DNA of 64,000 nucleotides from Alphaproteobacteria bacterium (lineage in GTDB: Bacteria > Pseudomonadota > Alphaproteobacteria > Rickettsiales > SXRF01), in assembly GCA_033763575.1 (NCBI GenBank), contig JANRKF010000013.1, forward strand, positions 81,396 to 145,395. Direction: 5' to 3'. Of the stretch, positions 4,189 through 9,972 are shown in pieces. Position 1 is the stretch's first letter. Each line of letters opens with the position of its first letter. The notes below the pieces were generated by a model. It was not told the DNA's origin, did no database searches, and saw only the letters and a program-made list of their open reading frames with translations. The translations under genes and the position numbers were made by a program.

Positions 4189-5595
4189 ATGGCTATATCA
4201 GCAGAAGAACTTGCAGCCTTATTTGAAAAAGGGCTTGGCAAAAAATCATTCGCCAAAATTATGGAAGCGGCGGTGGAAAACTCCACGCTGCTCGATTCAC
4301 TGACCGGCGCCCAAGAAGCTGCACTCAAGAAATTTGCTTCTAAGAATCCCGCTGCCGCCGCTGAAGCCTTTGGCAAACTCGCCGAAAGCCAAGCACGTAC
4401 TGCACTTGCAGAAGAACTTGGCGTAGACCCCGCAGCCGCTAAAAAAGAGGTAGACTGGGATTTAACACGCAAACCACGTGAATTTGAAGAAGCCATGACC
4501 GAGAGATACAAACGCATGGGCATCAAGAATTTTGCCGATGACATGGGCTTTGACAAGGAGAGCTTCGACGAGTCGGTTGGAAAACACGTCCGTATCACCG
4601 AAGACAAATATGGTGATGCCAAGGTCGAGCTTCGTAGAAAATCTGCCTTGGATGACATCAAGGGTGAGATTGACAAGTTACATCGGGATAAAGAGCGCCT
4701 GCTGGAGCGCGATCCATCAAAAACCAAGGAAATTGGCGCAATTGACAAGAAGCTTGAGGTGCTCGGTAAAAAAGCGCAGCGGGAAATTTATGACGCTCGC
4801 GAAAGTATCGATAAATACGCAAAGGGCCTTGATGATGCTCATGCGAAAAAAATGTATAAATTGGAAGATCGCCAACGTGAGATCACCGATGCTCTCGACT
4901 CTATCGACCACAAAGGCAAAAGAGGCGCTCGTAAAATCATTCTGGATGAAGAGCTGAAAAAATCCCTGTTGATTGAAACCGACCATGGACAATATCGCAT
5001 CGATGAAGATGGGGTAAGTTTGGCGGGTAGAAATAAATCTGGCAAGGCGGTTGAAGTAAAGGATTTAAAAGAGGGTCAAATCAAAGGCATTCGAGAAAAA
5101 GCCATAGAGCGTGTTGAACAGCGCTATGACGCTATCAGAGATGCTGCAAAAGAACGGCATGAGGTCGTACAAAAACACCTGACCAGCGCCTCTGAACATA
5201 TAAACGGCGAGATAAAAACAGAAGTCAGCACCAAAACCGGTATGGGCGAATGGACGGGTAAAACCGCTTCCAAGGTCACTCCGGGTGGGGTGCAGGCCGC
5301 CTCCAAAGGCATCATGACCGAAGTAGAATACGAAAAACTCAGCCCCACCGAGAAATTTGGCGCCAAAACCAAGGCGGTATTCAAAAGCGGCCCGATGGGC
5401 ATGGTGCAGACTGGCCTGATGGCGCTCGGCGGTATCGACGGTTTCCGCCGCATCATCGAGGGCGGCAGCGACATCATGTCGGGTGATCCTGAACGCCAGA
5501 ATGGCTGGAGCAAAGTCTTCATCGGCGTGCCGGAAGTGGCCGTTGCCGGATGGATCGGCCAGATGGGCGGGCGCAACAAAGTGCTCGGCGTATAA
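4189..5595 (+). CDS. Hypothetical K/E-rich coiled-coil protein with Gly-rich hydrophobic C-terminus (orphan)
   Basis: 468-aa ORF with GAGGAGAACGTTATG initiation context. Long charged helical repeats, then a C-terminal GPMGMVQTGLMALGGIDG...VAVAGWIGQMGG hydrophobic segment. No family recognised. Confidence 0.6.
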   Translation: MAISAEELAALFEKGLGKKSFAKIMEAAVENSTLLDSLTGAQEAALKKFASKNPAAAAEAFGKLAESQARTALAEELGVDPAAAKKEVDWDLTRKPREFEEAMTERYKRMGIKNFADDMGFDKESFDESVGKHVRITEDKYGDAKVELRRKSALDDIKGEIDKLHRDKERLLERDPSKTKEIGAIDKKLEVLGKKAQREIYDARESIDKYAKGLDDAHAKKMYKLEDRQREITDALDSIDHKGKRGARKIILDEELKKSLLIETDHGQYRIDEDGVSLAGRNKSGKAVEVKDLKEGQIKGIREKAIERVEQRYDAIRDAAKERHEVVQKHLTSASEHINGEIKTEVSTKTGMGEWTGKTASKVTPGGVQAASKGIMTEVEYEKLSPTEKFGAKTKAVFKSGPMGMVQTGLMALGGIDGFRRIIEGGSDIMSGDPERQNGWSKVFIGVPEVAVAGWIGQMGGRNKVLGV

Positions 5596-6218: not shown

Positions 6219-6686
6219 CTAAAAAGGAATCTCATCATCCATCAGTTCAGCGACCGGCTTCGAGGCAGGCGCAGCGGAAGGCGAGTTGTAGCTTTGGCTC
6301 GCGCCGTAATCGCCGCTGCTGCCGCTGTCATCGCGCTTGCCGTCGAGCATGGTGAGCACGCCGTTAAAGCCCTGCAGCACCACTTCCGTGGAATATTTCT
6401 CCGCGCCGTCTTTATCGGTATATTTGCGGGTCTGGAGCGCGCCTTCGAGATAGACTTTCGCGCCTTTTTTCAGGTAGTTTTTGACCACCTTCACCAGGTT
6501 ATCGTTGAAAATGACCACGCGGTGCCACTCGGTCTTTTCCTTGCGCTCGCCGGTATTTTTGTCCTTCCAGCTCTCCGAGGTGGCGATGTTGAGGTTGGCG
6601 ATCTCGCGGCCATCCTGCGTGCTGCGGATTTCGGGATCACGCCCCAGATTGCCAATTAAAATCACTTTATTCACGCTTCCGGCCAT
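6219..6686 (-). CDS. ssb: Single-stranded DNA-binding protein
   Basis: [43 protein letters not shown]...TEWHRVVIF... OB fold, with the acidic tail ending DDEIPF. The start is moved to the internal ATG (6686) that matches the family N-terminus. Confidence 0.92.
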
Positions 6687-6801
6687 AATGTTTCTCCCTG
6701 TTAAATCGGCCTGCATGGCAGCGCAGGAGGGCACCCATGTCAAGTCTTTTTACACCTCCGCCGCCGATTCCGCACGCCACCGGCGAAGGTTCTTTATAAA
6801 T

Positions 6802-6825
6802 AAGTTATTAATAAATTAATAACTT
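6802..6825. promoter_or_regulatory. 24-bp AT-rich palindrome in the ssb / 975-aa-gene divergent region
   Basis: aagttattaataaattaataactt is a near-perfect inverted repeat (one central mismatch). Function is unknown. Confidence 0.3.
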
Positions 6826-6869
6826 TAAATCATTTTATTTCCGAATGTCACAATTTTGTCGCACAGGAT

Positions 6870-6903
6870 TCACCGAACTGTAACACACGCCACGCTATAA
6901 TTG
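6870..6903 (+). promoter_or_regulatory. Shared promoter-like block, copy B (GAAC-TGTAACACAC...TATAAT)
   Basis: tcaccgaactgtaacacacgccacgctataatt. TATAAT at 6896-6901 lies 17 nt after the TGT. Extra tgtcacaa and tgtcgcaca boxes sit at 6846-6866. It is 55-80 nt upstream of ATG 6958. Confidence 0.5.
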
Positions 6904-6957
6904 GACTAGTATGAGGGTGAATAGAGAACCCGCAAATCGAATGAGCAGGAGAATGTT

Positions 6958-9885
6958 ATGAGCGAAGAACCAACCAACAATGACAGCATGGCAGCAGACG
7001 CGCTTACACCCGCAAATACGTCAGCAGACAAAAAGGACGACGCCCCGGCGGATGCGCGGGAGGAAGAAGACCGCGCCGCAAGAGCCCGCGAGGAAGAAGC
7101 GAAAGCAGCGGCTGAGGAATTGGCGCGGGCGAATGCAATCCGACTTGCTATTGCACAAGCAACAAACAGCTTGTATTCATCGCCTGAATCACCTCCCGCC
7201 GATGCACCGCCGCTGCAGACACCAAAAGGACCTGGCCCCGTGATCGAACCACCCGAGGCCGGCGAACCTATCTCCGCGCTCGGATCGATTGCAAATGCCG
7301 AAGGACAAAAAGGCCCGCCTGTGCCTGGGTCACCGAAAGCCCCAACTTCAACCTCTGTGGCAAGCGAAGCAAGTAACGCAAAAATGGATACGGGGGAAGA
7401 ACGAAAACAGCCCGTAGCAAATACAAAAGACGCCCAAGAAGCCGCCGCACAGCTTGAGGCACAAACAAAAACGGCAGGGGCCGCCATCATCACCGATGCC
7501 GCCACCCGCGCCCGCGAGGCCGTGGCAGGGTTTTTCAAAAAACCGTATGAATCGACCGTGCCATCTCCTACCAGAGAAGAGCTTGCGGACATCCAAGTAG
7601 ATATGGCGAGAAAACTGACAGCCGCTGCAGAACGTGCAGAAGGCCCGCCAGCACCGGCATTGCCGGAGCCGCTTACGCCCGCATTGCCCAAATTTGATGA
7701 ATTGAATAACGCAGAATTACTGGATGAGATGCCGAAGCTGGCCGCTCGCCTTAACAGCACACAGGCACAGCTCGAAAACAATAAAAACAACGTAAGGACA
7801 TCGCCACAGCTCCAAGCTGACCTGGATGCCGCCAACGCAGCCTTCGAAGCCGGTATGGCAGAAGTGACCAAACGCGCCGGCGTGCTCTCGGAAAATCAAC
7901 TGCCGATTGTGCAAACGTCCCAAGCGAAAACCGTACAGAGTACGGGCTTCCGCTATGCGCTCCTTACCAATGATGCCAGCGTAAAAGCGCATCAGGACAC
8001 ACTGCTTACCCAGATGACCGAGCATGAGCAGTCACAACAACCTGTCTCCGCGCTTGCCCCCGTAGAAATAGCCGCAAATAATGCGATGATACCGGATGGC
8101 ATTCCACCTTCATCTCCAGCGCCCAAGACTCCAGCGGCGGAAGAATTACCGCCATCTCCTTTGCCGCCGCTGGCTCCTAAGGGAATTGCAACCTCGATTA
8201 AACCGCAACCGGCTACCGTCACTGCCGCCCAAGCGGCAGGCATGGGATTCGCTCCCGCCGCCAATGCAGCCATGCCGCCTGCACCTGCAGTGGTGGTGCC
8301 AGTAGTAACCACACCAACTGCGGCGGCCGTACCCCCAGCCGAGGCTGCACCTGCAACTCCGGCGCCTGCGCTGATTACCAAAATCACGGATGAGAATATC
8401 GACAAAATCACCCGTGCCGATCTGGAGCGGATGGGTCTGGAAGCACCGGAAGGCATGCTGCCGAGCGAACTGGCCGATAAAGACCTTATCAAAGCCGCCC
8501 GCGAAAATCTCGTATCGCACCTGCAGGAGAATATCAGCGAGCAATTGCTGCAAAAAGAGCGCCTGAACAGCGAGCTGAAAGACCTGACGGAAAACAACGC
8601 CTCGATCAGCAAGGAAGAAGCTGCAAGGGTTGCGGCGATCCGCGAGGAAATCAAGGCAATCGACGGAAAGGCCGATGCCGTCAAGGAAGTCTCAGGCATC
8701 AAACTGGAAGCCAGAAAGGTGAACGATGTCGATGCCATTTCCTACGAACTAAAGACCCATGGTAAATTAACGGGCGCGCTGGAAGCAAAACTTACATCCA
8801 TCAAAGAGACGGATATGGATGAACGGCTCGCCGTGCTCTCCGAGCAAGATCGCACAAAACTCAAAGAAGTGATCAATAAGGCGATTACGGACGAGAAGGG
8901 GAAAACCGATGCCGAGGGCGCGCCGAGCGTCAACCAGACGCGCCTGCTCGAACTGCAGAAACTGCAAACCAAGGTGGGGGCTGGCAGCAACACCAGCGAT
9001 TCCACCCAGGCGCGTGACCTTGCCAAGGCCCTGAAAGCCATGAGCGATCAGGAATTACAGGAATACATGGATAGCAGAAGCGCCAAGGAAGTGGGCGAAA
9101 TCGCCCAGGCGCTGCAAAACGAAGTGGATGCCGCGAACGGCGACCGCGAGAAAGGTGGCCTCTACCAACGGCAGCTGGATCGTATGCGCGCCATCAACCC
9201 AGCACTGCAGGTTAGCAACGCCAAGAAAGCGTCCGACTCCATAAACACCAACGTGACCGGTGAAAATGATGATGGGCTGGAAAATGCAAAAATCATCGAT
9301 GCGACCGAACTTGGGGAAGCCATTACAGGATTCAATACGGAACTGGCCAAATTAGACGGCACAAGCGGAATCAGCTCCGCCGATCTCCAGCTTCTGCTGG
9401 CCGAAGGCACTCGCAAGAATGGCCGCTTCCAATTGTCGGAAAAGGCGGTGGATGATCTGAAAGAGATGATCCCGCAAATGCAGAAAAGGGAAGCCGAAGC
9501 CGCCGCCGCAGCAGCAAAATCAGAAGCAGCTCAAGCAGACCGCACGGAAGACATGCGGATGCAACGCGCGATGGACCAATGGGTTGGCAGAGGTTCTCGT
9601 GGTAATGAGGACCTAAAAAATGCGCTCAATGCATTACGGGCGGATATGGTCGATGGCCGTGTTGGCGCTCACCGCGACCTCAATCAGGATGGAGAATTCG
9701 ATTACGAGGATCTGAGAAAATTTCTGGATGAATTTGCAAAACGCAATAACTCGGCAGAAGCCTATCAGGGTTATAATCTCGCCGGCATACAGCGCATCAT
9801 GGACAACACCCAACCCGTAGTCGAAGCGCCATCCACTCCGAATGAGCGCGGGACTGGCAACAGCGGTCCTGCTCGCCCACGCTGA
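6958..9885 (+). CDS. Large hypothetical protein, Pro/Ala-rich and coiled-coil (orphan, effector-like)
   Basis: 975-aa ORF with CAGGAGAATGTTATG context. Acidic N-terminus, PxxP-rich tracts (PPSSPAPKTPAAEELPPSPLPPLAPKG), long coiled coils, and an EF-hand-like loop DLNQDGEFDYEDL (9676-9714). No family recognised. Confidence 0.7.
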   Translation: MSEEPTNNDSMAADALTPANTSADKKDDAPADAREEEDRAARAREEEAKAAAEELARANAIRLAIAQATNSLYSSPESPPADAPPLQTPKGPGPVIEPPEAGEPISALGSIANAEGQKGPPVPGSPKAPTSTSVASEASNAKMDTGEERKQPVANTKDAQEAAAQLEAQTKTAGAAIITDAATRAREAVAGFFKKPYESTVPSPTREELADIQVDMARKLTAAAERAEGPPAPALPEPLTPALPKFDELNNAELLDEMPKLAARLNSTQAQLENNKNNVRTSPQLQADLDAANAAFEAGMAEVTKRAGVLSENQLPIVQTSQAKTVQSTGFRYALLTNDASVKAHQDTLLTQMTEHEQSQQPVSALAPVEIAANNAMIPDGIPPSSPAPKTPAAEELPPSPLPPLAPKGIATSIKPQPATVTAAQAAGMGFAPAANAAMPPAPAVVVPVVTTPTAAAVPPAEAAPATPAPALITKITDENIDKITRADLERMGLEAPEGMLPSELADKDLIKAARENLVSHLQENISEQLLQKERLNSELKDLTENNASISKEEAARVAAIREEIKAIDGKADAVKEVSGIKLEARKVNDVDAISYELKTHGKLTGALEAKLTSIKETDMDERLAVLSEQDRTKLKEVINKAITDEKGKTDAEGAPSVNQTRLLELQKLQTKVGAGSNTSDSTQARDLAKALKAMSDQELQEYMDSRSAKEVGEIAQALQNEVDAANGDREKGGLYQRQLDRMRAINPALQVSNAKKASDSINTNVTGENDDGLENAKIIDATELGEAITGFNTELAKLDGTSGISSADLQLLLAEGTRKNGRFQLSEKAVDDLKEMIPQMQKREAEAAAAAAKSEAAQADRTEDMRMQRAMDQWVGRGSRGNEDLKNALNALRADMVDGRVGAHRDLNQDGEFDYEDLRKFLDEFAKRNNSAEAYQGYNLAGIQRIMDNTQPVVEAPSTPNERGTGNSGPARPR

Positions 9886-9916
9886 GGCTGACCGCTTTAA
9901 ACCCTTGTACATCATG

Positions 9917-9946
9917 AAAAGAGGGGCTAGTTTTAGCCCCTCTTTT
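9917..9946 (+). terminator. Rho-independent terminator
   Basis: aaaagaggggct-agtttt-agcccctctttt hairpin with a T-run, 30 nt after stop 9885. Confidence 0.7.
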
Positions 9947-9972
9947 CGTTTGTGAATGGCGGTTTGAACCTG

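Follow-up and report, generated by a model that had tools for sequence, protein, structure and literature searches.

A 975-residue orphan protein of a Rickettsiales-labelled bacterium as a candidate lineage-specific effector recognised through a shared regulator site

Shared response-regulator sites have been used to find effectors of the Icm/Dot secretion system of Legionella (PMC2701608). In Legionella pneumophila as well as Coxiella burnetii, the Icm/Dot effectors regulated by PmrA or CpxR have a regulator site near the −10 element, and this site is common to the secretion genes and to many unrelated, lineage-specific substrates, some of them containing ankyrin or coiled-coil parts (Zusman et al. 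2007; PMC2701608). The effectors and effector candidates of the rvh (Rickettsiales-type) type IV secretion system form a second group for comparison: these proteins are of modular build, evolve fast and contain eukaryote-like pieces, their secretion route being uncharacterised, and they come from Rickettsiales with duplicated VirB4 (PMC11077975). The gene described here resembles both. It lies in a window of 64,000 nucleotides (nt; C13:81396-145395), from whose first letter positions are counted unless a contig or locus is named, in the genome (G000; 1.94 Mb, 35 contigs, 92% complete) of a bacterium also labelled as Rickettsiales. It encodes a protein of 975 amino acids (aa; P0001), referred to below as the 975-aa orphan, and we suggest that this protein is a lineage-specific effector candidate, recognised through a regulator site shared with the secretion operons.

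In Escherichia coli promoters, the Pho box takes the place of a −35 element and is found some 10 bp upstream of the −10 element. The same layout is seen here (Table 1), where four heptamers form two tandem Pho-box-type sites that occupy the −35 place; the perfect TATAAT that the original prediction had described behind this block is present at the downstream end, and no sigma-70 −35/−10 pair was found upstream of the gene on the plus strand. The 7-bp direct repeats, their 11-bp spacing and the four-heptamer array all match the tandem Pho boxes in promoters that make up the Pho regulon of E. coli, for which the consensus is CTGTCAT-A(AT)A(TA)-CTGT(CA)A(CT) (PMC3465305). With four PhoB/OmpR-type heptamers replacing the −35 element 10 bp upstream of TATAAT, a winged-helix response regulator is expected to be required for transcription of the 975-aa orphan.

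The block AACTGTAACACAC has two occurrences in the genome, ahead of the 975-aa orphan and ahead of a neighbouring orphan of 468 aa. A strict scan of the genome for two heptamers plus a −10 element gave 14 sites, compared with 2 for the reversed motif, and a position weight matrix (PWM) derived from the strict-scan sites gave 82, compared with 27 in the reversed-motif control. The 975-aa orphan scores 16.1-20.1 bits with this PWM, at the 99th percentile among the upstream regions of 1,302 long open reading frames (ORFs). The genome encodes two VirB4 paralogues (C22:14235, C33:68400) and one VirD4 (C22:21963), and the same type of promoter precedes both rvh operons, with high-scoring boxes directly upstream of each VirB4 operon (C22:12684, C33:69343). 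Further top sites precede the 975-aa orphan, its 468-aa neighbour and orphans of 417-1833 aa without a Pfam match. The box-driven set includes large acidic proteins, nearly free of Cys and lacking a signal peptide, among which are an ankyrin-plus-EF-hand protein and one with four EF-hands. A close match to the orphan's block, ATTCACnnAAnTGTAACACA, stands upstream of a 945-aa-type EF-hand gene and is conserved in three congeneric genomes.

We therefore favour, tentatively, the view that the 975-aa orphan is a fast-evolving cargo candidate co-regulated with the type IV secretion system, which we regard as quite possible though short of probable. The parallel with the Icm/Dot effectors has its limits: theirs is a type IVB system with another regulator motif and proven translocation, whereas here the system is of the VirB/rvh type, the motif is Pho-box-like and the case is known from sequence alone. 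The rvh candidates differ in another respect, in that the orphan has no sequence similarity to any of them.

Could the orphan instead belong to the same regulon and yet stay in the cytoplasm, as a scaffold, stress or phosphate-starvation protein, perhaps a disordered acidic polymer or a helical organiser, that is made when the regulator is active and never exported? Neither a signal peptide nor a membrane segment nor any recognised secretion domain is present in it, the heptamers fit the consensus of the phosphate regulator (PMC3465305), and ordinary cell genes may be among those with high-scoring boxes, in several cases. A true PhoB orthologue is also present (C26:128548-129219; 333 bits against a cut-off of 296.2), together with six other full-length matches to PhoB/OmpR-type regulators. 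However, no clear Pho box was found upstream of the canonical Pho target, the only PstS-type gene in the genome (C13:154700-155020); the boxes sit on secretion operons and orphans, which is also where this promoter class departs from the Pho regulon of E. coli. The absence of the gene from congeners, moreover, is hard to square with a housekeeping or stress role. We consider a purely cytoplasmic role somewhat unlikely.

The distribution of EF-hand-type loops in the genome also speaks for the favoured view. When all plausible ORFs of at least 80 aa were surveyed for the EF-loop pattern, nine proteins were found to carry it, none of whose genes had been used in building the PWM. Five of these lack a signal peptide, namely the 975-aa orphan, a 281-aa protein, an ankyrin-plus-EF-hand protein, a four-loop EF-hand protein and the 945-aa protein, and for all five the upstream Pho-box-type score is at or above the 98th percentile. 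For the other four, of which three have a signal peptide, the score falls between the 6th and the 60th percentile. The orphan thus helps to show that the EF-hand-type genes without a signal peptide concentrate in the regulon of the secretion machine. Among its companions, the four-loop protein scores 30 bits, and the ankyrin-plus-EF-hand protein, in which ankyrin repeats and an EF-hand occur together with a Pro/Thr/Ala tract, scores 25.6 bits with EF-hand_1. The four companion genes behind Pho-box-type promoters are located at C24:59734-61008 (L025, the four-loop protein), C15:22490-23335 (L040), C15:23448-25172 (L026, the ankyrin-plus-EF-hand protein) and C33:28810-31650 (L027, the 945-aa protein).

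The 945-aa protein resembles the orphan in general design. The two are similar in size and share an acidic N-terminus, Ala/Glu/Lys helices, a Pro/Ala tract, one or more EF-type loops at the C-terminus and a near-identical promoter block. They differ in that members of the 945-aa family carry DTNKDG loops of canonical type and a membrane-like segment rich in Gly, and no pairwise similarity between the two could be detected. Counterparts of the 945-aa protein are found in both congeners, with 956 aa in G002 (L049:824-3694) and 728 aa in G001 (L050:1823-4009). All three have an N-domain, Ala/Glu/Lys helices, a low-complexity tract and the Gly-rich membrane-like segment, and all three genes are preceded by the same block, ATTCACnnAAnTGTAACACAAA; the C-terminal EF loop is canonical in the G002 protein and merely EF-loop-like in that of G001.

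Is the loop of the orphan itself a Ca2+ site? The original prediction had placed an EF-hand-like loop near the C-terminus, and DLNQDGEFDYED(L) is found there, as residues 907-919 (9676-9714), with the ligand pattern that had been claimed for it. EF positions 1, 3, 5, 6, 8, 9 and 12 are satisfied, the ligand and Gly residues being D907, N909, D911, G912, D915 and D918, and a helix begins at position 10; the loose EF-loop pattern arises in 45 of 20,000 shuffles of the protein. As in EF-hands and other DxDxDG Ca2+ loops, including those of dockerins (PF00036, PF13499, PF00404), Asp or Asn occupies positions 1, 3, 5 and 9, Gly position 6, a hydrophobic residue position 8 and an acid position 12, and a helix follows. 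The Asp at position 12 is dockerin-like and is also seen in true EF-hand proteins of this genome; the nearest look-alike, loop 2 of the four-hand protein (DFDGDGEFDESD), has it as well.

In other respects the loop departs from these families. It falls below the profile cut-offs (EF-hand_1 12.0 bits against 25.4; EF-hand_7 9.3 against 30; dockerin_GC 13.7 against 29), and as a single loop it lacks the duplication expected of a dockerin. The residue directly before it, R906, is not hydrophobic, unlike the Leu or Met that precedes all eight loops of the other EF-loop proteins without a signal peptide, and the modelled entering helix stops at residue 898, eight residues short. No recognisable partner loop is present, the only candidate being a weak alignment of residues 867-892 to the hand of the ankyrin-plus-EF-hand protein (E = 0.07). 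A fold search with a model of the C-terminal 100 residues, itself of low confidence (mean predicted local distance difference test, pLDDT, of 50), returned nothing below E = 8. We put the chances that D907-D918 is a real Ca2+ site at about even. The further proposal that the orphan is one cargo protein within a cargo subset carrying EF-hand-type Ca2+ switches, which would fire on arrival in the target cell, we consider unlikely.

A Ca2+ loop near the C-terminus of an acidic, Cys-free protein would also suit a surface or extracellular protein exported independently of Sec in some other way, for instance by type I secretion or the flagellar apparatus, with Ca2+ driving folding of the C-terminus outside as in RTX proteins. 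Type I systems are said to be conserved in Rickettsiales (PMC11077975). Against such a route, the genome has no PrtD-type ABC exporter at the family cut-off (the best match reaches 229 bits, compared with 510), and the orphan has no RTX repeats. Its last 50 residues are Pro-rich, which is not typical of type I secretion signals. Export by one of these other routes is accordingly quite improbable in our judgement.

The protein as a whole is rich in Ala (16.8%), Glu (9.3%) and Pro (7.2%) and, with 110 Lys and Arg against 153 Asp and Glu, carries a net charge of −43. The original prediction that there is neither a signal peptide nor a membrane segment holds: over 19-residue windows the Kyte-Doolittle mean peaks at 1.27, and the protein begins with an acidic N-terminus. 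No significant match was found in Pfam, NCBIfam, PHROGs or the sequences of the PDB. AlphaFold2, run on the full-length protein without an alignment, gave a mean pLDDT of 47 and a predicted template-modelling score (pTM) of 0.25, and divided the chain into two halves (Table 1). Isolated helices are predicted at residues 33-70, 158-191, 206-224 and 258-307 of the N-terminal half, and the C-terminal half is modelled as helices only, with a mean pLDDT per 10-residue block of about 43-78. The coiled-coil character attributed to the protein is overstated, because only three of the seven long predicted helices exceed shuffled sequences in hydrophobic occupancy of heptad positions a and d (258-307, 552-579 and 828-898; P < 0.001, 0.019 and 0.019); the other four do not, and there is no long coiled-coil rod. 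At the extreme C-terminus the last 12 residues have a charge of +3 and the pattern R-x8-R-x-R.

Proline is concentrated in three tracts (residues ~63-128, 215-245 and 360-478); the Pro-rich stretch that had been quoted at 8090-8350 corresponds to the third of them. Together they have 18 PxxP motifs. Tracts dense in PxxP had led to the suggestion that the protein engages host SH3, WW or profilin modules, a suggestion that failed on closer inspection. The orphan contains no SH3 class I or II ligand ([RK]xxPxxP or PxxPx[RK]), of which block shuffles contain on average 1.27, no PPxY ligand for WW domains, and no run of three or more prolines. In other modular proteins of the same genome, comparable Pro/Ala/Thr tracts serve as linkers, and those of the orphan look like ordinary linkers. 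The docking idea therefore retains hardly any probability.

That the ORF is a real gene is supported by its codon usage and by a promoter, a ribosome-binding site and a terminator hairpin of its own. The span first given for it, 6870-9885, covers promoter sequence as well as the ORF; the ATG is at 6958, in a translation-start context almost identical to that of the 468-aa orphan. When codon log-likelihoods were computed with a model for which 676 long ORFs of the same genome served as training set, the annotated frame ranked best in 18 of 18 sliding windows of 300 nt, and among long genes the whole ORF came at the 23rd percentile. Scores are 0.47-0.58 for windows that begin at residues 451-751, compared with a genome mean of 0.37, and the N-terminal half is weak. 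The G+C content (GC) is 56%, compared with 55.6% for the genome, and GC at third codon positions (GC3) is at the 8th percentile. The terminator hairpin has a folding energy of −37.2 kcal/mol (z = −6.6), which none of 200 shuffles equals, and because of it the gene is taken to be monocistronic. On one side the gene is flanked by ssb (6219-6743, minus strand) and on the other by holB-metG-tatD. We conclude that the 975-aa orphan is a genuine single-gene transcription unit, native-looking and confined to its lineage. Recently acquired foreign DNA was rejected as an explanation in view of the native GC content and codon usage, and so was an origin from repeats or a mobile element, since no stretch of the gene recurs elsewhere in the genome and no tandem repeats reached significance.

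Table 1. Features of the 975-aa orphan gene and its promoter (positions in the window)
Feature	Position	Strand	Details
Four direct heptamers	6846..6885	+	TGTCACA 6846, TGTCGCA 6857, ATTCACC 6868, TGTAACA 6879; exact 11-bp spacing
−10 hexamer TATAAT	6896..6901	+	perfect; 10 bp past last heptamer
Ribosome-binding site AGGAG	6947..6951	+	6 nt 5' of ATG
Coding sequence of the 975-aa orphan (P0001)	6958..9885	+	ATG 6958, TGA 9885; 975 codons
N-terminal half (residues 1-478)	6958..8391	+	acidic, predicted mostly disordered, pLDDT mostly <50, weaker codon adaptation
C-terminal half (residues 481-955)	8398..9822	+	~20 predicted helices, all-alpha, best codon-adapted part
EF-hand-like loop D907-D918 (DxNxDGxFDxxD)	9676..9711	+	12 residues, then predicted helix 916-929
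Unstructured C-terminal tail	9823..9882	+	ends ...NERGTGNSGPARPR; net charge +3; last 12 residues without acidic residue
Terminator hairpin	9914..9949	+	16-bp stem, 4-nt loop, U-rich 3' side

The orphan status of the protein proved even more marked than had been supposed, with protein, genome and contig searches returning only the query. A word-indexed search of 5.8 billion clustered proteins found the query alone, an exhaustive phmmer search of 1.84 billion representative proteins found no homologue, and scans of genome and metagenome contigs together with an exact look-up found no other copy. When 40 related genomes, two congeners among them, were searched in six frames, using the whole protein and also its C-terminal half at E values up to 1, no real homologue emerged; a lone weak match in a trpG/trpD region was spurious. 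The possibility that the orphan is a paralogue of its 468-aa neighbour or of other box-driven orphans was likewise discarded for want of any similarity. The original prediction had counted absence from close relatives against itself, and this applies in part: the gene was not found in either congener, the two genomes being 94% and 100% complete.

Comparison with these congeners places the gene on a rearrangement junction. In the closest one, whose holB is 72% identical, a 90-bp spacer separates the divergently oriented ssb and uvrA, and holB lies on a different contig, preceded by a 345-aa ORF; in the second, a DD-carboxypeptidase-like gene is immediately upstream of holB. Here, uvrA is 45 kb upstream on the same contig (C13:40739-43618), and the orphan sits exactly on the ssb/uvrA breakpoint, with holB-metG-tatD now on its 3' side (6219-9951, compared with L013:5431-8877). 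The promoter was not derived from the old ssb-uvrA spacer, because that of the closest relative has no heptamer array. Orphans of this group diverge very fast. The 468-aa orphan (4189-5595) has a positional counterpart of 386 aa in the closest congener (L013:9422-10582) with 21% identity (pairwise E = 0.004). Counterparts of the 945-aa EF-hand protein can be made out in congeners solely by the membrane-like and EF-hand segments. The missing homologue could thus reflect either a lineage-specific gain or runaway divergence after relocation. The alignment of the 468-aa and 386-aa proteins extends to a Gly-rich hydrophobic C-terminus and gives a gauge of the rate at which box-driven genes diverge.

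Might the orphan, then, be a young or fast-diverging gene of no settled function, tolerated at the junction because it is cheap? It is a singleton in every database searched, it stands where the closest relative has uvrA beside ssb, its N-terminal half is disordered and weakly codon-adapted, and the other orphans of the group have diverged almost past detection between congeners. A gene of this kind would not readily be expected, however, to maintain an intact frame of 975 codons, codon adaptation above average in its C-terminal half, a complete promoter, ribosome-binding site and strong terminator, and a GC content that matches the genome. We regard it as distinctly unlikely that the gene has no settled function.

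Under the interpretation that we prefer, co-regulation with the type IV secretion system, the 975-aa protein would be made alongside the secretion machine as one of its fast-evolving substrates. The disordered, Pro/Ala-rich N-terminal half would serve as a flexible linker and the helical C-terminal half would carry the activity, with the EF-hand-like loop possibly providing a Ca2+-dependent switch, and the unstructured, Arg-ended tail may be an export signal. Substrates of VirB/D4 systems reportedly have Arg-rich tails, which the tail of the orphan resembles weakly. The earlier idea of a secreted effector thereby gains indirect support from the promoter type common to both VirB4 operons, from the large orphans and from the ankyrin and EF-hand genes; the host-module motifs, on the other hand, are lacking, and the EF-hand-like loop scores under the profile cut-offs.

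Several points weigh against this interpretation. The gene is unlinked to either secretion locus. Co-regulation is a moderate predictor of effectors, that feature alone being 71% correct in Legionella (PMC2701608), and the presence of candidate effectors does not imply secretion in Rickettsiales (PMC11077975). PhoB and six PhoB/OmpR-type proteins are all candidates for the regulator, and pstS lacks a clear box. The putative export signal appears weak, since the last 30 residues carry a net charge of only +1; confidence is low for both structure models, which offer no confident fold, and the EF-hand lies under every profile cut-off. No homologue was found in the searches; and because the gene was not found in the two congeners, its function would be dispensable or very recent at the level of the genus.

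The orphan bears on the question of which substrates the type IV systems of environmental, early-branching Rickettsiales-like bacteria export. Early-branching lineages may direct their type IV system at other bacteria, and whether the target is a eukaryote or a bacterium is debated (PMC11077975). Alone, the protein is one more orphan, and it matters more as the member of a class, being large, well defined, without a signal peptide and behind a textbook regulator-dependent promoter. If a subset of the cargo, the orphan included, does carry EF-hand-type Ca2+ switches, the combination of promoter and EF-hand would offer a sequence handle on the secretion substrates of early-branching Rickettsiales.

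Finally, the intergenic regions on the two sides of the gene have features of their own. The terminator hairpin ends 3 nt 5' of the listed GTG start of holB (9952), so that either the true start or the promoter of holB is unusual, or holB relies on read-through. On the other side, the heptamer array (6846-6885) also reaches 19.5 bits when read on the minus strand, where it faces ssb and has TAAAAT at a distance of 8 bp. The regulator may thus act on ssb too, or the score may be a by-product of motif symmetry, TGTCACA being near-palindromic. Upstream of the heptamers, the AT-rich spacer that separates ssb from the orphan contains a perfect 11-bp inverted repeat, AAGTTATTAAT-AA-ATTAATAACTT (6802-6825), possibly an operator or a site of DNA bending for the divergent promoters.

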